64,000 nucleotides of DNA, from positions 2,409-66,408 of the forward strand of contig JBHLRJ010000003.1 in assembly GCA_048882645.1 (NCBI GenBank), in the 5' to 3' direction. The stretch is from Candidatus Thorarchaeota archaeon. Its GTDB lineage: Archaea; Asgardarchaeota; Lokiarchaeia; Sigyniarchaeales; SOKP01. Every line of letters starts with the position of its first letter. Positions within the stretch are counted from its first letter, which is position 1. The notes under the pieces are model-generated. The model was given only the letters and a program-made list of their open reading frames with translations, was not told where the DNA came from and made no database searches. The translations under genes and the position numbers were made by a program. Shown here piece after piece: positions 7,844 through 55,264 of the stretch.

Positions 7844-8275
7844 ATGAAAAAAATCATTAAAGAATTCAAAAATAAATATTTCTTTCTCTCAAACTTTTTT
7901 CCCGTTAAAATTAAGATAGATGGAGTAGAATATAGATCTTCAGAACATTATTTTCAAGCAATGAAATTTACCGATCCCATAATTCAAAAACATATAATTA
8001 ATGCCCCTAGTGCTTCAGTTGCCAAAAAAATGGCTAAGAAGTATAATCGACGAGAAGATTGGTATGAAATCAGTTTGGATGTAATGGAGAAAGCATTAAG
8101 AACAAAGTTTGCCATACCCGAATTGCGCGATAAATTACTTGCTACAGATAATATGTATCTCCAAGAGGGTAATCGATGGAACGATACTTTTTGGGGTGTT
8201 GATTTACGTACAAGGAGAGGAAAAAATCATTTGGGTAGATTGTTAATTAAAATCAGGTCTGAATTAAAGAAATAA
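7844..8275 (+). CDS. NADAR (YbiA/DUF1768) family protein
   Basis: F..FS.F.P...IDG..Y.S.EHYFQAMKF motif and the C-terminal W..D.FWG......G.N.LG.LL pattern characteristic of NADAR domains (recalled, not searched). Confidence 0.75.
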   Translation: MKKIIKEFKNKYFFLSNFFPVKIKIDGVEYRSSEHYFQAMKFTDPIIQKHIINAPSASVAKKMAKKYNRREDWYEISLDVMEKALRTKFAIPELRDKLLATDNMYLQEGNRWNDTFWGVDLRTRRGKNHLGRLLIKIRSELKK

Positions 8276-8281
8276 AGATCA

Positions 8282-9178
8282 TTAATGCAGAGGTGGCTTC
8301 TTATTAAAAAAAGTTCGATAACAGTTACAACATGGGATCCCAAGAACAATCTTATTGGAATAATATTTATCGAAATCTTCGGAAATTAATTCTATTAATT
8401 GATTTTTAAGTTTAATATCTTTCTTCTTTTTGCTAAAATAAAAATTTAGAAGATAGTTAGTGTGGTTGTTTATTTTACAAAAAGGGCATCTTGAAAAATA
8501 CTCGATAAATCTATCACATAACCTTTTGGCTTTGCCATTAAGTGATTGGTATCGCTGGTCTAACACCTCTACGGGATAACGATTATTCCCTAACAATTGG
8601 CTAACGATATCTTCCACACTTTCTCTAATTGGTTCAACTTGCTCATAACTCACTCTTTTTGATGTACGAGAATATAATATGTTAGTAACTAATTGTTTAA
8701 TAATACAATCCTTTTTACTTTCTTCATAGATATTTGTTGAGTAATATGTAATGATTCCCTTATTCCTCACAAATTCGTTAATCTCCTCTGAATTTACTTC
8801 TGGTTCAAGATCACTTTTAGTGCCGATTAAGATTGTAGGGATATTCCCATTAATTTTTCTTATCAATTTTATCCATGCATCAAGATCTTCAAAAGTCTGG
8901 TGACGAGAAAGGTCAAAAAATAACAATGTTCCTGCAGAACCCTTAAAAAACGAAGGATAAAACAATGGTATTCGAACTCGTTGACCTATTTCCCAAGTAG
9001 CACACCTGCATAGATCACCATTATCTAAAAAACTGTCTACTACATCAAAATCTATCCCAAAATGCCGCATTGTATTAAATCCTCCACTTCTAGTATCTAT
9101 AGTACCTCTGATAAAGGTTGTTTTTCCCACATAGGACGATCCCACCACTGTAATTTTGATCCGCCAACTTGCAGACAT
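8282..9178 (-). CDS. Ras/Rab-like small GTPase with a C-terminal Cys-rich (zinc-ribbon-like) domain
   Basis: G1 GSSYVGKT, G3 WEIGQ, G4 TKSD. C-terminal SRCPFC..NH...GIPCCNC. GGAGAGG SD-like run before the ATG. Confidence 0.75.
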   Translation of the reverse strand: MSASWRIKITVVGSSYVGKTTFIRGTIDTRSGGFNTMRHFGIDFDVVDSFLDNGDLCRCATWEIGQRVRIPLFYPSFFKGSAGTLLFFDLSRHQTFEDLDAWIKLIRKINGNIPTILIGTKSDLEPEVNSEEINEFVRNKGIITYYSTNIYEESKKDCIIKQLVTNILYSRTSKRVSYEQVEPIRESVEDIVSQLLGNNRYPVEVLDQRYQSLNGKAKRLCDRFIEYFSRCPFCKINNHTNYLLNFYFSKKKKDIKLKNQLIELISEDFDKYYSNKIVLGIPCCNCYRTFFNKKPPLH

Positions 9179-9272
9179 GTCCTTACCTCTCCTTCAATAG
9201 TGATTAGAATTAGTTAAATAATGAATAAAAAAATATATTTCTAGAAATTGATTCAGTTCTAGAGTTCTCATT

Positions 9273-10361
9273 TTAAAATAAACTCATGTGAGCCAAATCT
9301 TCTGAAGCATCCTCTATAAATCCGCAATTGGGGCATATTTTTTTTCGCTGTTTCGGTTGTTTGCATGAAGGACAGTTAACAGAATAGAATGCTGTTATAT
9401 AAGCTTCTCCTTTGAGATTATGAGATTGTATTATCACACCATCAATTTCGATCTGGTTTAAACTGCTTTTATTCTCTTCTAATTCTGAAATCTCTTTAAA
9501 CATTTTCCTTGTCTTTTCAATTGCTTTCTTATAGGGTCCTTTCCCCTTCACTTCCCATGAGATATTCGATTCTATAGATTCAAATAATCCCTCTTGACGA
9601 ACTTGGAAATTACGTGGTGAACGATAAATTTCTACACCCTTAATTTCTCCTTCATTATTGATCACGACTACACCAACTGTATTTTTTGGAAACTTGACTT
9701 TCTTTGCCCTTTTTTTGATTCTTCCTCTTCTAGCTGATATTCCTAATGTATATTGTGAATGATCTGAAATTCCTTTTTCACTTGCCATTTCCTCACTGAC
9801 TTTATTCCACACTTTATATTGGCTAATATGGGAAGCTCCTATAAATCCAGAAGCACTAGAATATTTCATCGATCTCATTTCATTGAGCATTCCTCGACTG
9901 GCTTTTCCTCCGTACCCAAATGAAGCACCTGATGATAAACGATGAGGAGCATGTACACATTTAACACTGATGACTTGAGATATGCCTGCTTCAACCATTA
10001 CAGTGCCAATACAAATTCGATCTTGTGTTCCCTGCCCTAGAAAAATTTCTCCTTCCTCAATAAGAATTGGCATGTTTCCTAAGTTTTCAAAAACAATATG
10101 AGCTACTTCAGTCCCTTTATCAATGATATTACAAACTCCCGTCTCAATTGCTTCTGAAAGAGTAAGATAATCACGTTCTTCTTTTGGAATCTCATGCTTA
10201 AGAATCGGTACAAACGAAATTTCGTCTAAAATAACAGGAGTTCCTATTTCGAACCCATCCATTTCTAGCACACGCATTGCGAATTTTTTAATTGTTTCGG
10301 TCTTTGACATTTTCAAATTCAACTTATTTTTGTTATGTAGATTTTGAACTAAAGCCTTCAA
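9273..10361 (-). CDS. ARPP-1/DUF6569-like protein with a C-terminal zinc ribbon
   Basis: The motifs YLTLSEAIETG, EEGEIFLGQGTQDR, VKCVH, QYKVW and GVVVINNEGEIKGVEIY resemble the DUF6569/ARPP-1 pattern (from memory). C-terminal CPSC-x10-CPNC. The track start is TTG at 10361; the first ATG is at 10310. Confidence 0.5.
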   Translation of the reverse strand: MKALVQNLHNKNKLNLKMSKTETIKKFAMRVLEMDGFEIGTPVILDEISFVPILKHEIPKEERDYLTLSEAIETGVCNIIDKGTEVAHIVFENLGNMPILIEEGEIFLGQGTQDRICIGTVMVEAGISQVISVKCVHAPHRLSSGASFGYGGKASRGMLNEMRSMKYSSASGFIGASHISQYKVWNKVSEEMASEKGISDHSQYTLGISARRGRIKKRAKKVKFPKNTVGVVVINNEGEIKGVEIYRSPRNFQVRQEGLFESIESNISWEVKGKGPYKKAIEKTRKMFKEISELEENKSSLNQIEIDGVIIQSHNLKGEAYITAFYSVNCPSCKQPKQRKKICPNCGFIEDASEDLAHMSLF

Positions 10362-10505
10362 TTGTTATTTTTATAAACTAATTGAATTTTCGCTTTAAAT
10401 CTTGTATACCAAGAAAAAAAACTTATATAAACTTATGGATCACTAAATTTCATGGATCCTAGCTCAACCCTCCACATATATTAAAAAATAAAAAAAAATT
10501 AAAAA

Positions 10506-11405
10506 TTAAAATTTAAAAATTTCCCTAAATTTATCCTCCTTTAAAACATTAACTCCTAAGACATATTCCATATAGTTCAAACCATTCTTATGCCCTGCTT
10601 GGCTGAAACTAGCGCTTAAATCCTCACATAGGTATACATTTTTAAAATTGTGGATAACTTTTAATTCGAAAGTCAATAATTTCAATTTTACATCTGTTAC
10701 TACTCCAAAAACTCCAATAATTGCTTTCTCTGTTGAGCTATTATGATTATTAATGATAGAATCTAGTATAAAATCAAGTTTGGTTTCAGTAAAAGAGCTA
10801 AGACTGTTAGAATTGATTACTTGCGTAAAAGTGTTATAAGGAGGTGTTTCTACGTATTTTGCCAAGGATTCGATAAATTTTGCTCCATGCGATCCTTTTA
10901 TACAATGATATCCAAAGTTCGTCATTTCTTCTACCTGACTAGGATCAATTGGATCATGCCAATCTCTTAAATGTATAAAATAGTAGCGATCTTTATTATC
11001 AGCTTTATTTGTATCAGAAGCTTTTTTCATAAGATCGTCTATAAATTTTACTAACCTATCATTATCCCATAATCGATTTGATTGATCGATATTGATGTGG
11101 ACTCTGTGTTTATATTTTTTAATAAATTGATGGTAAGAATACTTTAACTCGTTTGCCCTAGGGTCATCAAAATTTTTTATCATTTCAATGAAATTATCAA
11201 TATCTTTCTCGCCTGGTGGTATTGTTTTATTTTTAAAATACCTTATCCATTGTTCTCTACACACTTCATAGCTTACTTTCCAAGGATCACTAATATCATT
11301 TTTAATTTCAGCTAGATATTCTCTTTCAATGAAATCATTCTGCATCGAATTTGTTATAATTATATATAAATTGCCAGATTCGTTATTTTCTATATACTTA
11401 GACAT
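10506..11405 (-). CDS. isochorismatase/nicotinamidase-fold protein with the catalytic Cys and Lys positions substituted
   Basis: IIITNSMQNDF, DWHDPID, YHCIKGSHGAKF and GVFGVVTDVKL align with the PncA motifs (vvD.QNDF, DWHP.H.SF, HCV.GT.GA.F, G.A.D.CV). ATG is preceded by GAGGGG, 12 bp after the WD40 gene stop. Confidence 0.6.
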   Translation of the reverse strand: MSKYIENNESGNLYIIITNSMQNDFIEREYLAEIKNDISDPWKVSYEVCREQWIRYFKNKTIPPGEKDIDNFIEMIKNFDDPRANELKYSYHQFIKKYKHRVHINIDQSNRLWDNDRLVKFIDDLMKKASDTNKADNKDRYYFIHLRDWHDPIDPSQVEEMTNFGYHCIKGSHGAKFIESLAKYVETPPYNTFTQVINSNSLSSFTETKLDFILDSIINNHNSSTEKAIIGVFGVVTDVKLKLLTFELKVIHNFKNVYLCEDLSASFSQAGHKNGLNYMEYVLGVNVLKEDKFREIFKF

Positions 11406-11417
11406 ATTTAGCCCCTC

Positions 11418-14159
11418 TTAATTTGTTTTTATTCCCCCTGTTCCTAATCTTCTTCTTGCTAGGACAGTTTTAATTGGTTTTTTAATCAAAATTAATATAA
11501 AAACAGTGATAAACAAGACACTTACAAATGCATTTAGACTTAATAGAATTATCCAAATAGGTTCTATAAAACGTCCAGGTTCCTCAAAAATATCTTTATA
11601 AAGAATTAAAACACTTATTATAGTGAAAAGAAAATCGAGCATTACCAATCCCGCAAGATATTTGTCTAGAATTTTCCCTCCTCTTGACCATGAACCTTTC
11701 CCAATTTTAATTATAGCATGTGGATTTGGAGGAGAGTGAAAATTATTTCTAAATGCTTCAAATAATTCAATGTCCCCTTTTACCTCCTTTCTAGATTCTA
11801 AAGGGTTTAAACTTTCAGTTAATTCAACGGAAATCTTTCTTATTTTAATTTTTGCATAATCTTCCACACTGTATCTCTCGTTTAATTTAAAGATACAATC
11901 AGAATAATAGAATTTATCAGGAATACCCTCCTTTGTATTATTGTAGGCCTTTTCATACGGTTCAGAATGCTTATCCTTTATTGATTTATACGGTTTTTTT
12001 AATATATATAATGGCACATATCGTTGATCATTTTCCTTTTCATTGTTTTCTTTTTTATCCTTTTGTTTTTTCTTCTCACTTTGTTCAGCCTTTGGCTTAA
12101 TTGATAGTTTAAAATCTGTAAATATTAACTTATCTTTGTCGCCACGATCGTCTTCAATATCTAGATTAACTGCTTTTAATAATGGTATGAATGTGGTTGG
12201 AACCCTATCTAAAACCATTAAGAACCTTAATTGTGATTGGGTTCGATCCCTGAGAATTATAAAGGGTTCTTGTTCATTTTTCCTATTTGAAAAACTATTA
12301 AAATTGGTAATTTCAATAAAACGTGCGTATTCGATTGGTTTTTCTATGTCTGTGGTTAAAAACAGTTTAAATTTCCATTGTAAATGGGGAACTTCATGAA
12401 ACATCTTTGTCGTACTGAACCAATAACTCTCATAATTTGTCCTTACACTATCGATATATATTCTCTGATCCTTGTCAACTCCCTCGAACTTTATAAATGA
12501 TGGTACAAAGAGAGCACCTAACTTTCTTGGATTATACCCTTCAATTGGATCTTTTAACCTTGTTTTAATCTCAGTATAGATCTTCTTTAATGATTCTTCA
12601 TCTTCATCCAAAGTTTTTACAATTTGTTTTAAATTAGGACCATATATTTTTTTATAGAGATCCTTATGCTTAAGCTCTAAAAGTTTAAGCTGCTGATAAA
12701 AATGCCATATTCGACCATAATTTCTGAGAATTAAGACTTTATTTTTCTTTATTGCAAAAATATATTGATCTCTAGGAGAAAGTAAGATCTGTCTCAAAAA
12801 ATCTAAACCCAAACCGTAATCTTTTAATTTTAACTCTTCGTGGTTCATTTGATGTTCTTTCTCTTTGCTTTTTTTCTGGAGCTTAATTTCATTATATATG
12901 TCGATTTCGTCATCAAGATTTATGTTTCTTACTAAAACTTTATCAGTTATATTCCATACCTTTATTGTGTTATCTTTTGAAGCAGAAAAAAGATATTTAT
13001 CGTCATCCTGGACAACTAATGATACAATCTCTTTAGTATGGTCAAACTTCTCGAAAATTTTCTTTCTTTTTTCGATATCCCATACCCTAACTACATTATC
13101 AAGGCAACCTGAAGCTACTTTAGTTCCATCTTTAAAGATTTTTACACAAGTTATACCATTTTCATGGGATCCGATTACTGATTCCTTCCTATCATTGTCT
13201 AAATCAAATTTATATATGTTATTATCATTGGAACCACTGATTAAAAATTTCTGATCCTTTCCATTATATAAATCAAATGTTAGAATCCACTCACCTTTTG
13301 TGCTTAGATTAGAATCACGTTGTATTGGTTGCTCACTAGAAGGTATTAGATGCAACTCTCCAATGAAATTTTCTCCAGTCTTATCTTTAGAATATATTCC
13401 GATAGTGTTAGCAGAAAAAAATATTCTAAATCCCTCTTTTAGATTTCCATCTAATTTATCTGCTAGTTTATCTGGTAAAATTTTGATATCAAAAATAGCT
13501 TTCTGAGTTTTACTCTCTTCTGAAAATTTTTGATAAAATTTAGGTTTTAAATTCCATTCTTTCTGTTTTTCATCAACATCACCAATCCAAACATATATTT
13601 CTCCGTTGATACTCCCCGCACATACAATCCATATTTCCTTATTATTTATTTCGGTTGTTAAAGCGTCAACACATAGCAACCAATTAGTTTTTTTTACTTC
13701 TCCTACACCCTCTCCTCTCTCTTCTGCTCTTATAGATCCTTCTAAAATAAATTCTTCTTTCCCTACCTTTTGCAAGATTTTATCTATTGACCATACACAT
13801 ACTCTTGGAATTTCACCTTCCTCAAGTTCAGAGCAAATTATTAAATATTCACCATTTGGAGTTATTACCATGCTTCTAACATCAAGATCTTTGCTTAAAC
13901 CTGTTTCTCGATAACATTTTAGCACTTGTCTTATGACTGGTTTTTGAGCTTTTTCTTCAATTTTGACCTTTTTCTTTACATCTTGCATTTCTATAGTTAA
14001 ATCATCTAATTTACTTGCATCAATAATAATTTCATTTTTACCTTGCCTAAGAACTATCTTTTTATCCTCTGTCTTAGCTTTCAATATATTAGTTATCTTC
14101 TGAGATGGGTCATCATATTTAGTTTCATTATGAGTATTACTTGTCAAATTATTCGCCAT
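11418..14159 (-). CDS. WD40 beta-propeller protein with a large middle region and a C-terminal two-helix membrane anchor
   Basis: Canonical WD units (GHENGITCVKIFKDGTKVASGCLDNVVRVWDI; DHTKEIVSLVVQDDDKYLFSASKDNTIKVWNI). C-terminal hydrophobic helices LVMLDFLFTIISVLILY and IWIILLSLNAFVSVLFITVFILILI. Confidence 0.8.
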   Translation of the reverse strand: MANNLTSNTHNETKYDDPSQKITNILKAKTEDKKIVLRQGKNEIIIDASKLDDLTIEMQDVKKKVKIEEKAQKPVIRQVLKCYRETGLSKDLDVRSMVITPNGEYLIICSELEEGEIPRVCVWSIDKILQKVGKEEFILEGSIRAEERGEGVGEVKKTNWLLCVDALTTEINNKEIWIVCAGSINGEIYVWIGDVDEKQKEWNLKPKFYQKFSEESKTQKAIFDIKILPDKLADKLDGNLKEGFRIFFSANTIGIYSKDKTGENFIGELHLIPSSEQPIQRDSNLSTKGEWILTFDLYNGKDQKFLISGSNDNNIYKFDLDNDRKESVIGSHENGITCVKIFKDGTKVASGCLDNVVRVWDIEKRKKIFEKFDHTKEIVSLVVQDDDKYLFSASKDNTIKVWNITDKVLVRNINLDDEIDIYNEIKLQKKSKEKEHQMNHEELKLKDYGLGLDFLRQILLSPRDQYIFAIKKNKVLILRNYGRIWHFYQQLKLLELKHKDLYKKIYGPNLKQIVKTLDEDEESLKKIYTEIKTRLKDPIEGYNPRKLGALFVPSFIKFEGVDKDQRIYIDSVRTNYESYWFSTTKMFHEVPHLQWKFKLFLTTDIEKPIEYARFIEITNFNSFSNRKNEQEPFIILRDRTQSQLRFLMVLDRVPTTFIPLLKAVNLDIEDDRGDKDKLIFTDFKLSIKPKAEQSEKKKQKDKKENNEKENDQRYVPLYILKKPYKSIKDKHSEPYEKAYNNTKEGIPDKFYYSDCIFKLNERYSVEDYAKIKIRKISVELTESLNPLESRKEVKGDIELFEAFRNNFHSPPNPHAIIKIGKGSWSRGGKILDKYLAGLVMLDFLFTIISVLILYKDIFEEPGRFIEPIWIILLSLNAFVSVLFITVFILILIKKPIKTVLARRRLGTGGIKTN

Positions 14160-14272
14160 TTTTTTAAGAATTAAAATATAGATTAATTGAAGTGACGTTT
14201 TAATTTAAGATTTTTTATAATCATCTTATAGAAATTAAAAAGAGATACTAACAGATTTTTTACAATGTACGT

Positions 14273-15070
14273 CTATGACTCTTTCGAAAACACTTTTTTG
14301 AAGCAGTTACAACACGGGATTCCAATCTTAATTTTACCTACTAAAAACTTATCAAAAAACTCAGAATCTTCCATAAGTTCAATAAGATTTTCCTTTAATC
14401 GCTTTGTAAAAGGATCATTAGAGAAGAAAACTCTATTTAAATTACTATGATGATTTTTTCCCAAACAAATGGGACATCGGGAAAAATACAAAAGGAATGT
14501 CTGATAGATATGTTTTTCTTGATCAGATAATTTTAGGTTTTCAGGTCTATAATAAACAATGTGTTCAAAAATACGGGAGACTATATTATCGAAAATCTGG
14601 GGAGTTTTCAGTTTGTCATGAGTAGAAATAAGATAAAATCTTGAAATTTCATTTGTTTCTACAAATTCACTAATCTCTTCCAAATTTATTTTGTCCTTTA
14701 TAGCTGATTTGAAAGCGATTAAAAAAATTGGAATTTGTCCAGAATATGATCTTATCTGTTCTAACCAATAATTTAAATCCTCAAAACTCTGTAAAACTGA
14801 AATATCATAGAATAGAAGACACGCTACAGCACCCCTAAAAAAGGTAGAACTCATAAATCGAAATCTTTGAGCACTATTAATATCCCAAATGCTTATAGTC
14901 AGACTGTCGCCATATTCGTTTGAACAAGATGTAGTTTTGATGTCAGTTCCTACAGTAATAAATGAATTCTTAAAAAAACTATTTATATTTTGCTCACACC
15001 CTTTAAAAAAAGCACTCTTAGCAGGATTCCATCCAACAGCCACAACCTTTACTTTAAATGAGCTAGACAT
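14273..15070 (-). CDS. small-GTPase-like protein with degenerate nucleotide-binding motifs and a C-terminal Cys-rich domain
   Basis: Ras-like fold pattern, but G1 is GWNPAKS, G3 is WDINSAQ and G4 is FKSA. The C-terminal SRCPIC..NHH...GIPCCNC is paralogous to 8282-9178. GGGGAG precedes the ATG. Confidence 0.6.
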   Translation of the reverse strand: MSSSFKVKVVAVGWNPAKSAFFKGCEQNINSFFKNSFITVGTDIKTTSCSNEYGDSLTISIWDINSAQRFRFMSSTFFRGAVACLLFYDISVLQSFEDLNYWLEQIRSYSGQIPIFLIAFKSAIKDKINLEEISEFVETNEISRFYLISTHDKLKTPQIFDNIVSRIFEHIVYYRPENLKLSDQEKHIYQTFLLYFSRCPICLGKNHHSNLNRVFFSNDPFTKRLKENLIELMEDSEFFDKFLVGKIKIGIPCCNCFKKVFSKES

Positions 15071-24324: not shown

Positions 24325-25383
24325 CTAGACCAAAGTCTCAAAAATAGTTTTCGCTAGGTATGGGAATGATATTGTTTGATTTTTATACTCGGATAGAATT
24401 CTTTTGACTTCCTCAAATCTGTTTTTCAAGAGATTATGAAATTCATTAGATTTTAAGAAATCGTTAAACAACTCTGCGAATTCCAATTTAAACTTGTCTA
24501 TTCGCATTTCCTCTTTATCAAATAAATTGATCTCCCGTTTGAGTTCATAAATATGATTATAAAGATCCTCCCCAAAGATAGAGATATCATTTTGATAAGG
24601 TATCCCTTTTATTTCTCCTAATTGAAATGATTCACCTGTAGAGTTAATTAAAGATATTTGGTTTAAGCTCTCCCATGTTAAATTTGGTCCTAAAATGGGG
24701 ATAATTGGTATTTGATTGTCTAGTGCCAACTGTAGTTCAAATTTACATGGTTCAGAGTGTAATGAATTTTCAGTAGCAAAAAATAATAAGATATGACTTA
24801 ATGGGACGTATTTTCTCATAAATTCTATAAAGTTCATACCACCCTGAATCGCTTCTTCACTATAATATACTTTATAAATTTCTTCTCGCTCAGAAAGAAA
24901 TTTAGATGTATCCAGTATATTGATCAAATTGCTCTCAAAATCCTTTTCAGCATGACTACAAAACACAGTAATTGCATCATGTCTCCTGCAATAATCAAAT
25001 ATTTCAACTATATTGTTCTTTACAACCTGTGTCCACTCACCTTCCCATGGATTCCCATCTAAATGGATCTCATTTACACTTTTTAAATGCCACAATTTCA
25101 TAGGAAGTCCAGTTAATCTGTTACTCGTTAATCCGAGAAATTGTATCTTTTCGAGATTCATTATCGAATCTGGAAGGTTGGGTAGCTGATTATATGATAA
25201 GTTTAATATTTTTAGCGACTTCAGTTTATGAAAAGATTCTGGAAGTTTCTTAATTTTGTTGAAATATAGATTCAAATTTATCAAAAATCGTAAATTACCA
25301 AAACTTTCCGGCAACTGTTCTAATTTATTATTACTACAATCTAACTCTTCAAGTGTGATCAAATCTCCAAAACAATCTGGCAA
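24325..25383 (-). CDS. LRR + TIR-like domain protein (downstream part of an in-frame TAA-interrupted GTPase-LRR-TIR gene)
   Basis: LRR units (LxxLxLxxNxLxxLP) continue in register from the upstream ORF. TIR-like region ITVFCSHAEKDF ... ILLFFATENSLHSEPCKFELQLA. No ATG; the first codon is a TTG directly after the TAA. Confidence 0.7.
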   Translation of the reverse strand: MPDCFGDLITLEELDCSNNKLEQLPESFGNLRFLINLNLYFNKIKKLPESFHKLKSLKILNLSYNQLPNLPDSIMNLEKIQFLGLTSNRLTGLPMKLWHLKSVNEIHLDGNPWEGEWTQVVKNNIVEIFDYCRRHDAITVFCSHAEKDFESNLINILDTSKFLSEREEIYKVYYSEEAIQGGMNFIEFMRKYVPLSHILLFFATENSLHSEPCKFELQLALDNQIPIIPILGPNLTWESLNQISLINSTGESFQLGEIKGIPYQNDISIFGEDLYNHIYELKREINLFDKEEMRIDKFKLEFAELFNDFLKSNEFHNLLKNRFEEVKRILSEYKNQTISFPYLAKTIFETLV

Positions 25384-26490
25384 TTATTCTAATCGATTTT
25401 CAGCTAAGTCAAGTTGTTTTAGAGATTTTAATTGACAGACTACTTCTGGAAGATGAATAAAATGGTTTCCATTCAAGTTTAGATAATCAAGCTTCTCTAA
25501 TCTATTCAGAGAATCAGGAAGATCTGATATCCTATTTCCCCTTAAGGATAAATATTCGAGCAATTCCAACTTCCCTATTGATGAAGATAAATTCTCTAAA
25601 TTGTTTTTAGTAAGACCTAAAATTTTAAGATTTTTAATTGTAAAGACAAATTCTGGAATACTTGATATTAAATTATCATAAATCCTCAATTCTTCTAGTG
25701 AATTAAGTTTTGTTAGAATATCGGGGATTGCCTTTAATCCACATCTAAATAAGCCGAGACCTTTTACTTGATCTCCATCGATAATTACCCCAAAAGGTTC
25801 TGAAGATAATTTAGTGACTACTGGGATTTCTTGTTTTATTAATTTCTCTAGTTCTTCAAGAACTCTTGCTTGTTCTTGTTCAATTCCCCATCTATTCTGC
25901 TTAATGATTTGTTCAATTTCCATTGTAGGACGAAAACCAACTTCATCCTCGCTAATTTTATAATCAATTCCTTTACTTTTTAAAATTTGAGATATTAATT
26001 CCTGGAAAAGCATATCAACGTTTTTTCCTGTTTTTGCAGAGGTTTCAACATATGGGCAAGACAATTTATTAGCGACTGATATTGCATCCGACTCTGACAC
26101 TTTTCGATCATCTACTAAATCACTTTTGTTTCCTGCTAGAACTATTGGAATCCGACCTGTAGTTTGATATAACTCATCAAGCCAAGCAGTAACGCTTAAG
26201 TTAAAGGTATTAGCATCAGCAAGATCAAATACGACAATGGCTGCAGAAGCTCCCCTGAAAAACGTAGTTTTTGGTAATTTTAAACGTTCTTGGCCTGCCA
26301 TATCCCATAAGGTAAGATTAAGTACTAGATCTCCCACTTCTATTTGTTTGATAGAAAAATCAGCCCCGATAGTTAGAATATAGGATTCTTTGAAATGACG
26401 ATCTACATACCTCCTAATCAGACTGGTCTTCCCAACTCCAAAATCTCCTATTAACACAATTTTAAAGACTAAAGTGGTTTTTTCAGACAT
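25384..26490 (-). CDS. Ras/Rab-like (Roc-type) small GTPase fused to LRRs
   Basis: G1 GDFGVGKTS, G3 WDMAGQE, G4 NKSD, G5 SAKTG. A pre-LRR motif EQARVLEELEKLIKQEIP is followed by 5-6 LRRs. Ends at TAA 25384-25386 inside an LRR. Confidence 0.8.
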   Translation of the reverse strand: MSEKTTLVFKIVLIGDFGVGKTSLIRRYVDRHFKESYILTIGADFSIKQIEVGDLVLNLTLWDMAGQERLKLPKTTFFRGASAAIVVFDLADANTFNLSVTAWLDELYQTTGRIPIVLAGNKSDLVDDRKVSESDAISVANKLSCPYVETSAKTGKNVDMLFQELISQILKSKGIDYKISEDEVGFRPTMEIEQIIKQNRWGIEQEQARVLEELEKLIKQEIPVVTKLSSEPFGVIIDGDQVKGLGLFRCGLKAIPDILTKLNSLEELRIYDNLISSIPEFVFTIKNLKILGLTKNNLENLSSSIGKLELLEYLSLRGNRISDLPDSLNRLEKLDYLNLNGNHFIHLPEVVCQLKSLKQLDLAENRLE

Positions 26491-38756: not shown

Positions 38757-38996
38757 ATGGGAAAAAAATTGGAAGGAATGAGTTTTTGTTTTACAGGAAA
38801 ACTTGAAACCATGAAAAGAGCAGAAGCAGAACAGCTAGTTCGAGATCATGGTGGTGAAGCGAAGAGCAGTGTGGTTAAAAATTTATCCTATCTGGTAACA
38901 AACTCAGATGAGCCAACGACGAAATATAAGAAAGCTCAAGCCCAAGGAACTAAAATTATTACCGAAGAAGAATTTCTCAAAATGATAAACGAATAA
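38757..38996 (+). CDS. stand-alone BRCT domain protein
   Basis: LEGMSFCFTGKLETMKRAEAEQLVRDHGGEAKSSVVKNLSYLVT...KYKKAQAQGTKIITEEEFLKMI matches the LigA-type BRCT pattern. Confidence 0.75.
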   Translation: MGKKLEGMSFCFTGKLETMKRAEAEQLVRDHGGEAKSSVVKNLSYLVTNSDEPTTKYKKAQAQGTKIITEEEFLKMINE

Positions 38997-40234
38997 TGAA
39001 CGAAAAAGCTAAAATTATTCTTCGGAATGAGTCATTTGGGGGAATCTATTTCAACCAAGCTAATGGGAGGATGGTAATGGTAGATGCCCAAGGTTTTAAT
39101 ACACTCCTGAAAAATCTTGGAAAAAAAAGGCTTAATGAAAAAGAGAAAAAATTCAGTAATTTCTTTTTTAATTCCAAATTCCCTAAAGAAGTGGAATTGC
39201 GTATTGATCCCACTATAAAATATTCAAATAATTATTCAATTCCAATAACTAAAACACCTATTTTAGTTGATCTGTCTTTAAGTAATTACTGTAATTTAAA
39301 TTGTGATTATTGTTATATGTCATCAACTTCTATTAAAGAAGGAACAAACTTGTTAATGGAAAATTTTGAATCTCTCCTCTCAAAAATGGTTAAAACTAGA
39401 GTTCTTCAAATTGCCTTAGGAGGCGGGGAACCGACTTTATATCCACATTTTCCTCTCATTCTTAAAAAATTGCGTGTTGATGCAAACATAGTTCCAAATT
39501 ATACCACAAATGGTTCAAACCTCACTAATGAGATATTAAAGGCCTCAGAACAGTATTGTGGGGCTATAGCTGTAAGTTATTCTGAAGAACGATTTGATGA
39601 AACTATTAACGCTACGAAAAAGTTAATTTCTCATGGTATTCAGACAAATATGCATTTAGTATTATTAAAATCGAGAATACCTCGACTTTCTGAAATTACT
39701 GAACAATTTGCGAAGATAGGAATCTCGAATGTTGTACTGTTACTATTTAAACCTATGGGTAGAGGAATTAATTTGACTCATGAAATTCTCGACTCAACAG
39801 ATAGAAAAATACTTTCATTAGAGCTTCTAAAAATTCTGGCTCTTCGCAAAAAATATGGAGTACGGCTAAGTATTGATGCATGTTCTTCATTTATTCTAAA
39901 AGATTTTCCTTTCCTTCCCCAATCAATTGAAGGATGTACAGGAGGCACGTATTCTGCTTATATTGATTGGGATCTGAATATGAAGCCTTGTTCGTTTATG
40001 CAAATCGACCAAGGATATAATATAAAACAAAAAAGTATTCTAAGTGCGTGGGAATCAGATTTGTTTGAAAACTTTAGAAAAAGGTTAATATCACCTCGTT
40101 ATGAAGGTTGTCAAGCCTGTGATCATTTCCTTAGTTGTTTGAGTGGATGTCCAATAAGTCCTGATATTGTGTTCTGTGAACTAAAGGGAGATAAAATTGA
40201 CAAATCTTATATCTTTGAGGAGGATCTTCTTTGA
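38996..40234 (+). CDS. radical SAM / SPASM-domain protein
   Basis: CNLNCDYC (Cx3Cx2C), GGGEPTL, and C-terminal Cys clusters CTGG...PCSF and CQACDHFLSCLSGCP. Its start overlaps the BRCT stop (TAATG). Confidence 0.85.
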   Translation: MNEKAKIILRNESFGGIYFNQANGRMVMVDAQGFNTLLKNLGKKRLNEKEKKFSNFFFNSKFPKEVELRIDPTIKYSNNYSIPITKTPILVDLSLSNYCNLNCDYCYMSSTSIKEGTNLLMENFESLLSKMVKTRVLQIALGGGEPTLYPHFPLILKKLRVDANIVPNYTTNGSNLTNEILKASEQYCGAIAVSYSEERFDETINATKKLISHGIQTNMHLVLLKSRIPRLSEITEQFAKIGISNVVLLLFKPMGRGINLTHEILDSTDRKILSLELLKILALRKKYGVRLSIDACSSFILKDFPFLPQSIEGCTGGTYSAYIDWDLNMKPCSFMQIDQGYNIKQKSILSAWESDLFENFRKRLISPRYEGCQACDHFLSCLSGCPISPDIVFCELKGDKIDKSYIFEEDLL

Positions 40235-43682: not shown

Positions 43683-44021
43683 ATGGTTGTTGTTATTCAA
43701 CGAATGGTCCAAACACTTTATCCTGGAAAATGGGATGAACTTGAAAAAATTGATGAAAAATTTAATGAAATTGAAAAAAAATATGGCTTTCCACAGAATA
43801 AAAAGAGACTTAGGTGCTTATTTTGGGCTGTAGGATTCAATTCTATTATTATTGAATTTGAATGGCCAAGTTTGAGCAAAATGGAAAAAACTATGACAAA
43901 AGCATACCTTGATCCAGAATATCAAAAACTTACTGAAAAGTTAAATTCCATTATAATGGAACAAACTACGGAACTTTATACTCCAGTTATTAATATAAAG
44001 GATTTACAAGAACAAGAATAG
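43683..44021 (+). CDS. hypothetical protein
   Basis: 112-aa ORF. The overlapping 43612-43833 ORF is judged spurious. Confidence 0.45.
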   Translation: MVVVIQRMVQTLYPGKWDELEKIDEKFNEIEKKYGFPQNKKRLRCLFWAVGFNSIIIEFEWPSLSKMEKTMTKAYLDPEYQKLTEKLNSIIMEQTTELYTPVINIKDLQEQE

Positions 44022-46029: not shown

Positions 46030-49000
46030 TTAAATATCTTGATACCCACGCTTTTTAGCTTCAGAATATGCTTTTTCGGCTTCTTTCTTTTTACCCATTT
46101 CTTCATTAGCAGCTCCTATATTTGCCCAATATACTGCTTCATCTGGATTATTTTCAGCTGCCTCCTTGAAACATGACACAGCATCTTTAAATTTACGTTG
46201 ATTGAAGTGTAATAATCCAATAGCATTCCAAATTCCTGCATTCTTAGGGTTAAGATCCAAGGCTTTTTTAAAATATTCAATCGCTTTTTTGTACTCAGCC
46301 AAATTCTCATAAGCCCTTCCTATGTTCTCAAGATAAATGTCATCTGTAGATTTAAGTTGATGAGCTTTTTCATATTGTTTAATTGCATCTTCATATCTTT
46401 CCATGTGAAAATATACATTTCCGAACATATTCCAAGTGGATGATTCATTGGGATTTACTTCCAACGCTTTATTATAATATTCAATCGCTTTATCATATTC
46501 TTCTAACTGATCATAAACACCCCCCATAATCGAAAGATAGAATTCATTTGGGGGTTCTAATTCAATGGCTTTTTCATAATATGTAATCGCTTCATTATAG
46601 TTTTCTAAACGTAAATAAAGATCTCCTAATTTATACCATGTGGACGCATCATCTGGATTAACATCCAAAGCTTTATTGAAATATTCTATTGCTTTATCAA
46701 ATTCCCCTAATTCACTATATGATCCTCCTATATTCTCAAGATAGACTCCCTTTGTTTCAAGCTCTACGGCTTTTTCATAGTTAGTGATTGATTTATGGTA
46801 CTCTCCCATCGCATAATAAACATTACCTAACCTATTCCAATTAGACGAACTTTCTGGATTGATATCCAGAGCTTTATTTAAGTACTCAATCGCTTTATCA
46901 TATTGGTTTAAAAGATTATATGATATGCCTATAACCGAAAGATACAATTCACTCTTTGGTTCAAGTTCTAAAGCCTTTTCATATTTTGTAATCGCTTCTT
47001 GGTATTTTTGCATGTAATAAAAAACATTTCCGAATTTATACCAAACCGACGGATCATCTTGTTTAATTTCCAAAGCCTTATTATAATATTCAATCGCATT
47101 ATCGTATTCTTTTAACTCGGTATAAGATCCTCCTATATTTTCATAATAGACTTCATCATCAGGCTCTAGTTCTACAGCTTTTTTATAATTAGCAATCGAC
47201 TCATGAAATTTCTCCATACTATAATACACATTTCCTAATTTATTCCAAGTAGATGCCATCTTTGGGTTAAGTTCCAACGTCTTTTCAAAATATTCAATGG
47301 CTTTTTCATGTTGTCCTAATTTTTCATAAGCTCCCCCCAAATTTTCATGGTAAACATCGTTCTTAGGATCTACCTCGATAGCTTTCTCATATTCTTTAAT
47401 CGCCTCTTCGTAATTTTTTAGGTAATAATAAACATTTCCTATTTTATTATGGCTTGAAGACCTTTCTGGATTAATTTCCAAAGCTTTCTTATAATAATCA
47501 ATCGCTTTCTCGTGTTGATCCATATCTTCATAAGTTCCCCCTATATTCTCATGGTAAACTTCAATCAAAGGATCAAGCTCAACAGCCATTTCATATTGTT
47601 TAAGTGCTTCCTCATAATCTTCCATATGATAATACACATTGCCTAATCTATTCCAAATAGACGATTGTTTCGGATTAACTTCCAAAGCTTTTTTAAAATA
47701 TTCAATTGCCTTATCATATTTTTTTAATTGATCGTACACTCTTGCAATATCTGAAATAAAGAATTCATTACTCTTGAAAATCTCATGGGCTTTTTGATAA
47801 TACTCTAATGCTTCCTCGTACTTTTCTTGTTCATAACTCAGATTCCCAAGTCCCGACCAAACTTGAGGATTTGTAGCATTAATTTCCAATGCCTTTTTAA
47901 GAGTTTCTGTAGCTTTATCGAATTTTTTAAGTCTTGTGTAAGCACCTGCTAAATTTATATAGGCAATTGCATCATTGGGGACAATTTCGATTGCTTTTTT
48001 ATACATTTTAATTGATTCTTCATATTCCTCTTTCTCATAATAAATATGTCCAAGTCCCGTCCACCCCCAACTTGATCTGATATTAGATTCTTTACGAAGA
48101 TCAAGAAAATCACTGACTTCATCTGTAGGGCTTAGTTTTGTTGTTTTTTCATAACATTCTCGAGCCTTTTCATAATCTTTTTGAAATCTATAGATATCTC
48201 CAAGTCCTGACATCGCATCAGTATTCAGATTATCTAATTCAAGAGCTTTCTCGAAACATTTCCTTGATCGATCATAATCTTTTATTCTATAATATGAATA
48301 TCCCATATTAGACCAGAGATAGGATTCAGAACTATTCAATTTCAACAATTTTTGATAGGTATCAATCGCTTCTTGATCTTTTCCCAATTTTGAATATACT
48401 AAAGCTAAGGTGTTTAATACAGATCCACTATTTTCATTGATAGCGAGAGCTCGGTTAATGTATTCCATCGCTTTATCCATATCAAATAAACAATAACTAA
48501 TATATGCAATATCATCAAGTGCATATTCATTATTAGGATCATATTGCAGTACTTCTTCTGCCAGTTTTAATCCTTCGTCATATTGCAGCTTATAATAATA
48601 AATTCCGGCTAAAAGCAATAGTAAATATTCATTTTTTGGATGATCTTTTTGTAAATCTTTAAGGATTTTAAATGCCTCATCATGTTTCTTTTGACCAATT
48701 AAAAGTTCACTTCTTAACAAAAGGCATTCAAATGAATCGGGCTTACGTGCATGGATATAATTAACATACTTCTCCGCAGATTCATAATCTTTAATTTCAA
48801 TATTAAGGCGTCCGAGCGCTATGGCTCGATTATTACTTGGTTCAACTGCTTCTATTTCATTTATTAAAGTCTCAACATAGTTTTTTCCTAAGCCTGGTTT
48901 CCATAACCATTTTGAGATAATAAAAGGATCCTCGGCAATTTGATCAATTATCCCTTGAATTTCATCTACCTCAAGATCAGGTTCTGTAGATTCATCTTTT

Positions 49001-49431
49001 TCTTTTATATCTAAATCAGGGAATTTCTCCAAAATCTTAGGGATATTATCTTTTATTTTTGTGTAAATTGCATTTAAAGTCTCCTCAATATCTGTGAAAT
49101 CAAACTCAACACCTCTATATTGTTTAATTATTGTAGGGATGTGGTCTAATTTATGGTATACGGGTATTATGACTTTGTCAAGTAATAACGCAGGACTCCA
49201 TTCCTTTTGTTGTCCTTTCGATGTTTCTGTCTTTTTAGAACAAATCAATAACATGATATGACAGTCCTTAAGACTTTGATCCATAAATTGGATCATATCA
49301 CCCGTTGCATCTCTATACCAATACATAACTTCTTCAATCTCAGGCATTTCACTCAATCTGTCCGCCATTTGTTCAATTTTAAAATTATCTAAATCGCCCA
49401 ATGAATAACTAATAAACACTTTAAGTTTCAT
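46030..49431 (-). CDS. TIR-like domain fused to a very long TPR array (1133 aa)
   Basis: N-terminus KVFISYSLGD ... IMLLICSKKTETSKGQQKEW (TIR-like), then more than 25 TPR units. Confidence 0.8.
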   Translation of the reverse strand: MKLKVFISYSLGDLDNFKIEQMADRLSEMPEIEEVMYWYRDATGDMIQFMDQSLKDCHIMLLICSKKTETSKGQQKEWSPALLLDKVIIPVYHKLDHIPTIIKQYRGVEFDFTDIEETLNAIYTKIKDNIPKILEKFPDLDIKEKDESTEPDLEVDEIQGIIDQIAEDPFIISKWLWKPGLGKNYVETLINEIEAVEPSNNRAIALGRLNIEIKDYESAEKYVNYIHARKPDSFECLLLRSELLIGQKKHDEAFKILKDLQKDHPKNEYLLLLLAGIYYYKLQYDEGLKLAEEVLQYDPNNEYALDDIAYISYCLFDMDKAMEYINRALAINENSGSVLNTLALVYSKLGKDQEAIDTYQKLLKLNSSESYLWSNMGYSYYRIKDYDRSRKCFEKALELDNLNTDAMSGLGDIYRFQKDYEKARECYEKTTKLSPTDEVSDFLDLRKESNIRSSWGWTGLGHIYYEKEEYEESIKMYKKAIEIVPNDAIAYINLAGAYTRLKKFDKATETLKKALEINATNPQVWSGLGNLSYEQEKYEEALEYYQKAHEIFKSNEFFISDIARVYDQLKKYDKAIEYFKKALEVNPKQSSIWNRLGNVYYHMEDYEEALKQYEMAVELDPLIEVYHENIGGTYEDMDQHEKAIDYYKKALEINPERSSSHNKIGNVYYYLKNYEEAIKEYEKAIEVDPKNDVYHENLGGAYEKLGQHEKAIEYFEKTLELNPKMASTWNKLGNVYYSMEKFHESIANYKKAVELEPDDEVYYENIGGSYTELKEYDNAIEYYNKALEIKQDDPSVWYKFGNVFYYMQKYQEAITKYEKALELEPKSELYLSVIGISYNLLNQYDKAIEYLNKALDINPESSSNWNRLGNVYYAMGEYHKSITNYEKAVELETKGVYLENIGGSYSELGEFDKAIEYFNKALDVNPDDASTWYKLGDLYLRLENYNEAITYYEKAIELEPPNEFYLSIMGGVYDQLEEYDKAIEYYNKALEVNPNESSTWNMFGNVYFHMERYEDAIKQYEKAHQLKSTDDIYLENIGRAYENLAEYKKAIEYFKKALDLNPKNAGIWNAIGLLHFNQRKFKDAVSCFKEAAENNPDEAVYWANIGAANEEMGKKKEAEKAYSEAKKRGYQDI
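46081..47709 (-). repeat. eight tandem 204-bp (68-aa, two-TPR) super-repeats inside the TIR-TPR gene
   Basis: Units start AIEY[FY].KAL..NP and contain W..LGNVYY ... YE.A.EL.P....Y.ENIGG.Y. One unit is 67 aa. Confidence 0.7.
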
Positions 49432-53851: not shown

Positions 53852-55264
53852 CTATTTATTTTCTTTTAGAAGTTGGGCACATTTGGAAAAATATTCAACT
53901 GAATTAATTCGACCGCTACTTAAATCTTGAAATAATTCAGCAAACTGATCCCAAACTTCTTCAAACTGTTCTTTAAAACCTTCAGAATCTATATAGTTAT
54001 TTACCGACGTCTTAAAATTTACCCGTTCTCTATCAATTTTTGCTTGCTCTGGTTCAAATAAATGAATCTCCCGTTTCAATTTCAGGATATAATCATAAAG
54101 TTTCTGACAGAATGCTACGAAATCTTCTTGCTCAAATTCATAACCTAATTCTCTGCTTAAATTCAATTCTTTTAACTCTTTCCAATCTATATCTGGTCCT
54201 TTTATTGGTAAAATCTGAATATTATGTTTTCGAGCAAGCTCGAGTTCATGTTTACAATCCTCTGAATTATATATTGATTTGTTGGAAGCGAAAAACAATA
54301 CAAGCTGACACTTTGGTAATTTTTCATCCATGAAATCATCGATATTTCCAGCTAAATCTTCTTCACAGTAGAAAACTTTATAGATTTCATCCTGTTTTTG
54401 TAAATATTCTGAAATCTCTTTAATGTGAGAAATTTCAAAATCAACAACTGCATGACTTAGAAAAACGTTGATTGAAGCTCTCTGCCTACAATAATCAAGG
54501 ATAGTAAGAATATCTCTATCAGCAATTTCTTTCCATTCACCTTCCCATGGATTATGCCATAAAAAAAGAGTCTCTAAATTTTTTAATTTCCATAGTGTAT
54601 TTGGGAGTGATGTTAAAAGATTTTCTTCTATTAACAATTTTTTAAGAGATGTTAGGGTAGTTATTGCGTCTGGAAGGGAGGTAAATTGATTACTACCCAA
54701 ATCTAACTCTACGAGTGGAGTGAGATTGCCTAATGAATTAGGAATAGATTTTAATTCATTATGATTTAAGTTTAAGCTTTCAAGTGACTTTAGATTACCT
54801 ATTGACTCAGGGAGGGACCGTAACCGATTTTGCCTTAGGAATAACGCGTGGAGCGATTTTAATTGGCGTATAGAATTTGAGAGTGAAACTAATTGATTGT
54901 CATTCATGAAAAGTACTTGAAGGGATAACAATTTTGTTACTGGCTCCGGGAAAACAGAAAATTGATTTTCTGATAAATCTAGAAATTGGAGTGATTGCAG
55001 ATTCGCCAAAGATTCAGGAAGATTCGTCAGTTTGTTCCTAATTAAAAATAGTTTTTGAAGGGAATACAGATTCCCAATTTCTTCTGGAATGAATGTTAAT
55101 TTACAATCATATAAACTTAATGTTTTAACCATATCATCTTCGATTTTTACACCAATCCACAATGCACTTAAATCTTCTAACTTTGGAATCTGTCTGCCAA
55201 TCAATTCCTCTAATGCCATTAAAACTTGTGCTTGTTCAGGCTTTATCCCCCATTTATTACTCAT
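53852..55264 (-). CDS. LRR + TIR-like domain protein (uninterrupted paralogue of 24325-26490 minus the GTPase)
   Basis: Pre-LRR motif EQAQVLMALEELIGRQIP and about 9 LRRs. TIR-like INVFLSHAVVDF ... LVLFFASNKSIYNSEDCKHELELA. Confidence 0.8.
   Translation of the reverse strand: MSNKWGIKPEQAQVLMALEELIGRQIPKLEDLSALWIGVKIEDDMVKTLSLYDCKLTFIPEEIGNLYSLQKLFLIRNKLTNLPESLANLQSLQFLDLSENQFSVFPEPVTKLLSLQVLFMNDNQLVSLSNSIRQLKSLHALFLRQNRLRSLPESIGNLKSLESLNLNHNELKSIPNSLGNLTPLVELDLGSNQFTSLPDAITTLTSLKKLLIEENLLTSLPNTLWKLKNLETLFLWHNPWEGEWKEIADRDILTILDYCRQRASINVFLSHAVVDFEISHIKEISEYLQKQDEIYKVFYCEEDLAGNIDDFMDEKLPKCQLVLFFASNKSIYNSEDCKHELELARKHNIQILPIKGPDIDWKELKELNLSRELGYEFEQEDFVAFCQKLYDYILKLKREIHLFEPEQAKIDRERVNFKTSVNNYIDSEGFKEQFEEVWDQFAELFQDLSSGRINSVEYFSKCAQLLKENK

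Follow-up and report, generated by a model that had tools for sequence, protein, structure and literature searches.

The gene at positions 46030-49431 on the minus strand of a 64,000-nucleotide stretch of contig JBHLRJ010000003.1 (assembly GCA_048882645.1, Candidatus Thorarchaeota archaeon), referred to below as the window, encodes a protein of 1133 amino acids in which a genuine TIR domain (residues 1-130) is joined to a long array of tetratricopeptide repeats (TPRs). The protein has the TIR fold with a glutamate, Glu77, at the catalytic position, and it has neither an NTPase module nor an operon partner. The reading that we favor, by analogy and at about even chances, is that it may act as a ligand-gated TIR NADase, a sensor-effector like TIR-II of E. 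coli. We rate this as the most likely function because TIR-II, the BcTir/BcTpr pair and the solved protein 9m0n are the nearest related systems, and we infer for the protein NADase activity, gating by a ligand and involvement in immunity or conflict. Throughout the text, coordinates are positions in the window and residue numbers are those of the 1133-amino-acid protein. The source assembly, 88% complete, totals 3.79 Mb on 168 contigs; the G+C content of the window is about 30%.

To assign the N-terminal domain, we used the first 199 amino acids as a query against Pfam. TIR_2 (PF13676) was matched at residues 5-111 with 42.1 bits (E 1.4e-10), which exceeds its curated gathering threshold of 28 bits. 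In the same scan, DUF4062 (PF13271), the family of the "NIR" TIR-like NADases, stayed below threshold (12.6 bits, E 0.16, with a cut-off of 24.7), and so did SEFIR (PF08357; 17.9 bits, cut-off 23). The PADLOC bSEFIR match was weak (E 2e-5). Among the PDB sequence matches, the bacterial SEFIR structure 5y8e was one of similar strength. The motifs that had led a preliminary description of the gene, made from the DNA letters, to suspect a TIR-like domain are all present: KVFISYS at residues 4-10, IMLLICS at 59-65 and SKGQQKEW at 71-78. The AlphaFold model of the domain, based on a 22-sequence alignment, has a predicted local distance difference test score (pLDDT) of about 93-96 across residues 1-140 and shows the flavodoxin-like alternation of strands and helices of a TIR fold, with four strands (residues 3-8, 32-36, 59-64 and 87-92) and five helices (among them 19-27, 46-56, 72-83 and 115-128). 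When this model was compared with the PDB by Foldseek, the top 50 matches comprised nothing but TIR or SEFIR domains (probability 1.00 in every case), and they included SPARTA TIR-APAZ, a B. cereus TIR, MyD88, SARM1, RPS4, ThsB and TIR-STING. Active NADase TIRs head these matches (SPARTA TIR-APAZ, SARM1, ThsB, RPS4), which we count in favor of an NADase. The TIR assignment of the preliminary description has thus stood up to both the profile and the structural comparison.

Fold matches in a viral library comprised not only TIRs but also many nucleoside 2-deoxyribosyltransferase-like proteins, and the pocket-lining segment 66-74 is unlike that of canonical TIRs. Both observations would fit an enzymatic TIR that does not use NAD+ but acts either on RNA/DNA as a synthetase of 2',3'-cyclic nucleotide monophosphates (2',3'-cNMP), like some plant TIRs, or on a nucleoside or nucleotide, like the nucleoside 2-deoxyribosyltransferase-like enzymes. 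However, the profiles assign TIR_2 and not the deoxyribosyltransferase families, and the leading PDB matches are true TIR domains without exception; we therefore regard such an activity as improbable.

The position of the presumed catalytic residue was evaluated by alignment. Glu77, located in helix C, is conserved in 160 of the 161 aligned relatives, and in the profile-to-PDB alignments it coincides with the Glu of each of three known motifs: DWVHKE of C. elegans TIR-1, which is annotated as an NAD+ hydrolase, VLKE of a SPARTA TIR-APAZ, and SEWVKKE of 9m0n, a TIR-TPR protein of solved structure. The aligned Glu residues of SARM1/TIR-1 and SPARTA are the catalytic ones, so that the earlier claim of a Glu at the position used by NADase TIRs agrees with these alignments. 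The other near-invariant positions in the 161 domains are F6, S8, Y9, D13, W38, D41, M50, C57, L62, F63, C64 and S65, followed by S71, W78, A81, K86, I88-P90, P99 and G107. Our protein lacks the Trp of the WxxxE motif: Gly73 stands in its place, and across the subfamily (161 aligned domains) it is mostly Pro that does so.

The absence of this Trp throughout the subfamily is one of the points in favor of a different explanation, according to which the TIR is a non-enzymatic adaptor, like those of MyD88 and the TLRs, that through homotypic interaction links the TPR scaffold to the LRR-, Roc-LRR-, WD40- and PCI-TIR proteins of its own subfamily, forming a signaling network in the archaeon without any NAD+ chemistry. 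The TIR filaments of MyD88 and MAL also score well as fold matches. On the other hand, the lack of the Trp does not disqualify the domain for catalysis, since the SPARTA TIR, which is active, likewise has Gly four residues before its Glu; moreover, Glu77 and the polar residues D13, D41, S65 and S71 are kept beyond the conservation usual for a pure interface.

Two cysteines of the domain, C57 (139 of 161 domains) and C64 (156 of 161), are conserved in the subfamily, and neither of them belongs to the canonical TIR motifs. At the family-invariant Cys64, in the "LLFCS" strand, one relative has an in-frame TGA (contig DATKTP010000006.1, L003:6178-6180; also present in L021), and its frame carries on for 329 codons across this TGA. 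The contig looks Asgard-like although the metagenome-assembled genome (MAG) is labelled Cand. Deferrimicrobium, a bacterium. We considered selenocysteine at this column of L003/L021 and rejected it: no element resembling a selenocysteine insertion sequence (SECIS) was found, Rfam was blank, and the folds of the regions that follow the TGA and the end of the ORF were unremarkable. A second TIR with TGA at the Cys64 column was not found in 154 genomes of the order, where the 7 pattern matches proved to be unrelated sequence. Most likely, the TGA is a nonsense mutation, a rare Sec/Cys pair being the less probable alternative.

The gene is a single intact open reading frame (ORF) of 1133 codons, and its ATG start is correct, because the homologues start at the identical point (MGIKVFISY...). 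The features of the protein are collected in Table 1. Between the TIR domain and the repeats there is an acidic stretch of low model confidence (residues 131-152) followed by three conserved helices (153-194), which carry the sequence DPFIIS.WLW.PG.GK.Y, invariant in three orthologous sequences. In the full-length AlphaFold model, built from only 3 sequences, residues 200-1127 form 27 helix pairs, i.e., TPRs, with pLDDT mostly above 85, and Pfam finds 24-25 TPR stretches in the protein after the TIR. The TIR part did not fold in this model (pLDDT below 50), so that it is silent on how the TIR and the TPRs are packed. The preliminary description of a 1133-amino-acid protein composed of a TIR and more than 25 TPRs is borne out by these data, whereas its "one continuous TPR solenoid" has to be corrected: a linker of about 70 amino acids comes first, and a 19-residue loop (435-453) of low model confidence interrupts the array, dividing it into 7 + 20 repeats.

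Table 1. Features of the TIR-TPR gene and the evidence from which they were delimited
Feature	Position in the window	Strand	Evidence
Whole coding sequence, 1133 amino acids, monocistronic	46030..49431	-	ORF and layout of neighboring genes
TIR domain, residues 1-130	49042..49431	-	TIR_2 profile, AlphaFold (AF2) model, Foldseek
Glu77 codon, within S71-K-G-Q-Q-K-E77-W78	49201..49203	-	Alignment to relatives and to TIR-1, SPARTA and 9m0n
Linker, residues 131-199	48835..49041	-	Models and comparison with the orthologue
TPR repeats 1-7, residues 200-434	48130..48834	-	Helix pairs, full-length model
Insertion loop of 19 residues, residues 435-453	48073..48129	-	Full-length model and comparison with the orthologue
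TPR repeats 8-27, residues 454-1127	46051..48072	-	Full-length model
Eight tandem double-TPR super-repeats of 68 amino acids (204 bp), residues 585-1119	46075..47679	-	Anchor spacing

The TPRs are close to the designed consensus, and their best PDB sequence matches are engineered or consensus TPR proteins and the TPR superhelix of OGT; a scan against NCBIfam gave generic TPR cross-matches only. Within the super-repeat region, the anchors are spaced by 68, 68, 68, 68, 67, 68 and 68 residues, and the identity at lag 68 is 0.42. The units share a mean protein identity of about 40% and a DNA identity of about 58%. A "recent" amplification of these super-repeats was considered and ruled out: the units are real, yet their amplification is old, as follows from the low DNA identity, from the failure of Tandem Repeats Finder to report any repeat in the gene and from the one-to-one, collinear alignment of the units with those of the orthologue. 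No Walker A motif was detected in the protein by a pattern scan, and NB-ARC, NACHT and AAA are absent from its listed Pfam matches; hence, the protein is not of the STAND/NLR type.

A collinear orthologue was found on a contig of a Promethearchaeia MAG (L004, JBATUM010000102.1), where it is truncated by the contig end; it is 63% identical to our protein over 888 amino acids. The third member of the orthogroup, P0152, is a 241-amino-acid fragment from an ENA contig, 60% identical, with the linker motif included. The closest relatives of the window among public genomes are Promethearchaeota/Promethearchaeia MAGs, which makes the host an Asgard archaeon of the Loki type. Neither the 24 genomes of the same genus nor 16 further genomes of the order yielded an orthologue; their best TIR matches were no more than about 40% identical and lay apart from the TPR matches. 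A length-matched search for full-length relatives with a common N-terminus returned none. A patchy distribution of this kind, along with unconserved neighbors (see below), is typical of accessory or conflict genes.

Conservation between our protein and the L004 orthologue differs from region to region. It amounts to 69% in TPRs 1-11 (and also in TPRs 1-7), 57% in the super-repeats, 68% over residues 153-199 of the linker and 36% over its acidic stretch, while loop 435-453, at 74%, is the best-conserved segment. We take these differences as a hint at a specific, conserved role of the N-terminal TPRs and of the loop. The loop (the SPTDEVSDFLDLRKESNIRSS region) is the only break in the TPR array and is predicted to be disordered yet is highly conserved; it could serve as a regulatory or binding site.

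The same comparison bears on the possibility that we are dealing with a decaying or functionless repeat protein whose TIR-like N-terminus is a relic. Members of the family do decay, given that a sister Roc-LRR/LRR-TIR gene in the window is split by an in-frame TAA. In our gene, however, no codon interrupts the frame, the start agrees with that of the homologues, and the orthologue has kept the linker motif and the loop, all of which makes decay a very improbable explanation. The split sister gene lies at 24325-26490 (-), where a Roc GTPase-LRR ORF (368 amino acids) and an LRR-TIR ORF (352 amino acids) are contiguous and in the same frame; only the TAA at 25384-25386, inside an LRR unit (DLAENRLE*LPDCFGDL, the asterisk marking the stop), separates them. 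Either a Roc-LRR-TIR gene has been split here or is decaying, or the assembly is in error.

The TIR domain of our protein represents a subfamily of Promethearchaeota. An exhaustive HMMER search of 1.84 billion representative proteins yielded 605 relatives at E <=1e-3 and 431 at E <=1e-10, whose match always spans query residues ~1-126/130 and which share the motifs F.SY...D, YW.eD, C-D..LLFCS and S.PV..EW. TIR_2 was matched in all 121 relatives that were scanned, most of them without any other recognized domain; the partner domains found in the rest were LRR (14 of 121), a Roc/Ras/Arf GTPase (8), TPR (6), PCI (6), SNAP (3) and WD40 (2). Of 173 domain occurrences, 58 have the TIR at the N-terminus, 95 at the C-terminus and 20 in the interior. 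The genome from which the window derives bears 7 members of the subfamily and 5 more generic TIR_2 genes. Our gene had been described as the third in the window with a TIR-like domain, and this is indeed the case, as two LRR-TIR genes, at 53852-55264 (-) and 24325-25383 (-), match TIR_2 with 33 bits each. Paralogues of the same genome in which the subfamily TIR is fused to other repeat "sensor" modules were counted in favor of the NADase sensor.

To see how the subfamily is distributed, we surveyed 301 genomes of the phylum, taking E up to 1e-12 as a strong match. Strong matches were obtained in 48 of the 68 genomes of the family to which the window belongs and in 5 of the 7 genomes of a sister family, but only rarely elsewhere, and some genomes had at least 12 subfamily matches. 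In the tree of TIR domains, which is a quick tree only, the query falls into one clade (SH-aLRT, the Shimodaira-Hasegawa-like approximate likelihood ratio test, 99) with L004, P0152, P0004, P0002, which has three tandem TIRs, and P0006, which has a different C-terminal part. Other TPR-fused members branch elsewhere in the tree, so that TIR-TPR fusions must have arisen more than once. A further large TIR gene was noticed on a Promethearchaeota contig (L035:1-2638, Ga0452204_014455); its product of 1136 amino acids has TIR_2 as the sole recorded Pfam family, and it lies in a partly similar neighborhood, near homologues of two genes of the window described below, the 112-amino-acid ORF and the 607-amino-acid TPR gene.

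The make-up of the subfamily speaks for the adaptor in two ways. The subfamily is multi-copy, both in the genome of the window and in its richest relatives, and its fusion partners are signaling modules (Roc/Ras GTPase, LRR, PCI, WD40, SNAP) rather than classical defense effectors. A broader and more tentative proposal, which we find rather doubtful, is that these proteins form a TIR-receptor repertoire specific to one Promethearchaeota lineage and signal through TIR-TIR assemblies, our gene being one node of it. What supports this proposal are the distinct motifs of the subfamily, its size and its copy number per genome, and the combinatorial fusion of its TIR to LRR, Roc GTPase, TPR, WD40 and PCI modules. 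If true, eukaryotic signaling of the TLR/MyD88 or TNL kind would have an archaeal counterpart in the closest prokaryotic relatives of eukaryotes.

As for the genomic surroundings, the gene is separated by a gap of 747 bp from a divergent GNAT gene upstream, and a convergent gene for a 607-amino-acid TPR protein lies downstream. The flanking genes encode two GNATs, a protein with the metallo-beta-lactamase fold, a radical SAM/SPASM enzyme, hypothetical proteins, an LRR-TIR and two large LRR proteins, and the window is rich in proteins with Ras/Roc GTPase, WD40, LRR and TPR domains. When the ten flanking proteins were examined with PADLOC, only generic TPR matches, cross-matches of the radical SAM enzyme to pVip and weak matches were obtained. 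A partner of the Thoeris kind was likewise lacking, as Pfam detected no ThsA-type effector (SIR2, SLOG, macro) in the flanking genes.

We also looked for a conserved neighborhood, but no stable partner emerged, since the neighbors differ between the window and L004. In L004 (831-5248), a block of Ras, WD40 and isochorismatase-like genes adjoins the TIR-TPR orthologue, and the syntenic block of the window (Ras/Roc GTPase, a 913-amino-acid WD40 protein, isochorismatase-like), at 10.5-15 kb in the region 7844-15070, lies about 31 kb away from the TIR-TPR gene. This block is further flanked in the window by ARPP-1, another Ras/Roc gene and a NADAR (ADP-ribose-related) protein. On the contig of a relative with homologues of both the 112-amino-acid ORF and the 607-amino-acid TPR gene, the gene order is changed and there is no TIR-TPR orthologue.

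Two neighbors were characterized further. The ORF of 112 amino acids at 43683-44021 (+), upstream of the 607-amino-acid TPR gene, has 22 homologues besides the copy in the window, with 48-79% identity, in many Promethearchaeota. It was considered as a WWE domain, a reader of ADP-ribose, and this was rejected: WWE_4, the sole hint at a family, gave 22.1 bits with a threshold of 24.5, and the 22 homologues have no Pfam annotation. The radical SAM/SPASM enzyme at 38996-40234 (+) gave its pVip (viperin) cross-matches at E 2.5e-16; it is probably not a viperin, because these matches span the radical-SAM core only.

If the protein is a ligand-gated NADase, its action could be pictured as follows. 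Located in the cytoplasm, it would unite sensor and effector in one chain of the TIR-plus-repeat type that lacks an NTPase switch, and its superhelix of 27 TPRs (7 + 20) would bind a ligand. This ligand is probably a protein or peptide and would come from a virus or from the cell itself. Binding of the ligand, or self-association driven by it, would gather the N-terminal TIRs of several molecules, such that a composite active site might form around Glu77 and cleave NAD+, as in other TIR enzymes. The output would be NAD+ depletion or a signal derived from ADP-ribose, leading to growth arrest or cell death.

Several results weigh against this scheme. PADLOC recognized no defense system among the ten flanking genes. 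Near Glu77, the TIR-TPR orthogroup deviates from the subfamily consensus (D58H, N67K, P73G/A, V74Q), and the substitutions that precede Glu77 could affect a pocket. With 58% identity between the orthologues, the TIR domain has changed more than TPRs 1-11. Finally, a Glu at this position is also present in the non-enzymatic TIR domains of animal TLRs, and thus the conserved Glu is necessary but not sufficient for catalysis. The adaptor explanation gains from the same surroundings, which are rich in small GTPases and repeat proteins but not in defense genes. It is plausible because of the signaling-type fusion partners and the non-defense neighborhood; nevertheless, with the conserved polar residues and the active SPARTA TIR on the other side, we consider it possible but distinctly less probable than the ligand-gated NADase.

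TIR domains are common to immunity in bacteria, plants and animals, and their route into eukaryotes is debated. In this context, an expanded Loki-type TIR subfamily with eukaryote-like repeat and GTPase modules offers a concrete and testable set of proteins, and our protein is a clean single-chain representative for asking whether archaeal TIRs are NADases or adaptors. We found no description of the subfamily expansion in the literature searched, the coverage of which was incomplete, so that this does not prove novelty; with the same incomplete coverage, no publication linking Lokiarchaeota with a TIR domain was found. The papers found on Asgard defense systems mention TIR only inside named bacterial-type systems.

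Among the known systems, E. coli TIR-II is an anti-phage system that combines TIR and TPR, may consist of a single protein and needs the active-site residues of its TIR (Nat Commun 2024, PMC11350192); about 70% of TIR-II systems have no ATPase module (PMC11350192). Our protein resembles it, compared by domain make-up alone, in bringing TIR and TPR together in one system or protein without an ATPase module. In contrast to TIR-II, which is bacterial or phage-borne, our protein belongs to a Promethearchaeota-specific TIR subfamily; its TPR array, at 27 repeats, is far longer, and its gene lies outside any recognizable defense island. Among PDB sequences, the TIR profile scores best with 9m0n / 9umd, a "Tetratricopeptide repeat protein" of 824 amino acids (E 2.6e-6, residues 2-114), in which a TIR is likewise followed by helical repeats and the S..V.KE motif is shared, although only the TIR part aligns; a literature search found no paper on PDB 9m0n or 9umd.

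In the BcTir/BcTpr system of Bacillus cereus, which is anti-phage, the TPR region is coupled to NAD+ cleavage and the TPR length modulates the product (10.1101/2023.05.26.542521). The NADase resides there in the N-terminal domain of the TPR protein itself, the TIR protein being reported as inactive (10.1101/2023.05.26.542521). BcTir/BcTpr is a two-gene operon, whereas our protein holds both parts in one chain and has no partner gene; in fold, our TIR matches the BcTIR structure 8fz9 well. The TIR receptors of the STAND/NLR type (Avs-like TIR-NTPase-TPR proteins, plant TNLs) have an N-terminal TIR and a C-terminal repeat sensor in common with our protein, which differs from them in lacking the central P-loop NTPase. 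SPARTA TIR-APAZ and SARM1/TIR-1 share with it the fold and the aligned Glu at the catalytic position, and SPARTA also the Gly four residues before this Glu, but their sensors are different (Argonaute/APAZ and ARM-SAM, respectively), and their sequence identity to our TIR is 17-23%. Taken together, these comparisons show that the combination of TIR and TPR has bacterial precedents, while the less ordinary feature is the expansion of the subfamily within one lineage of Promethearchaeota.

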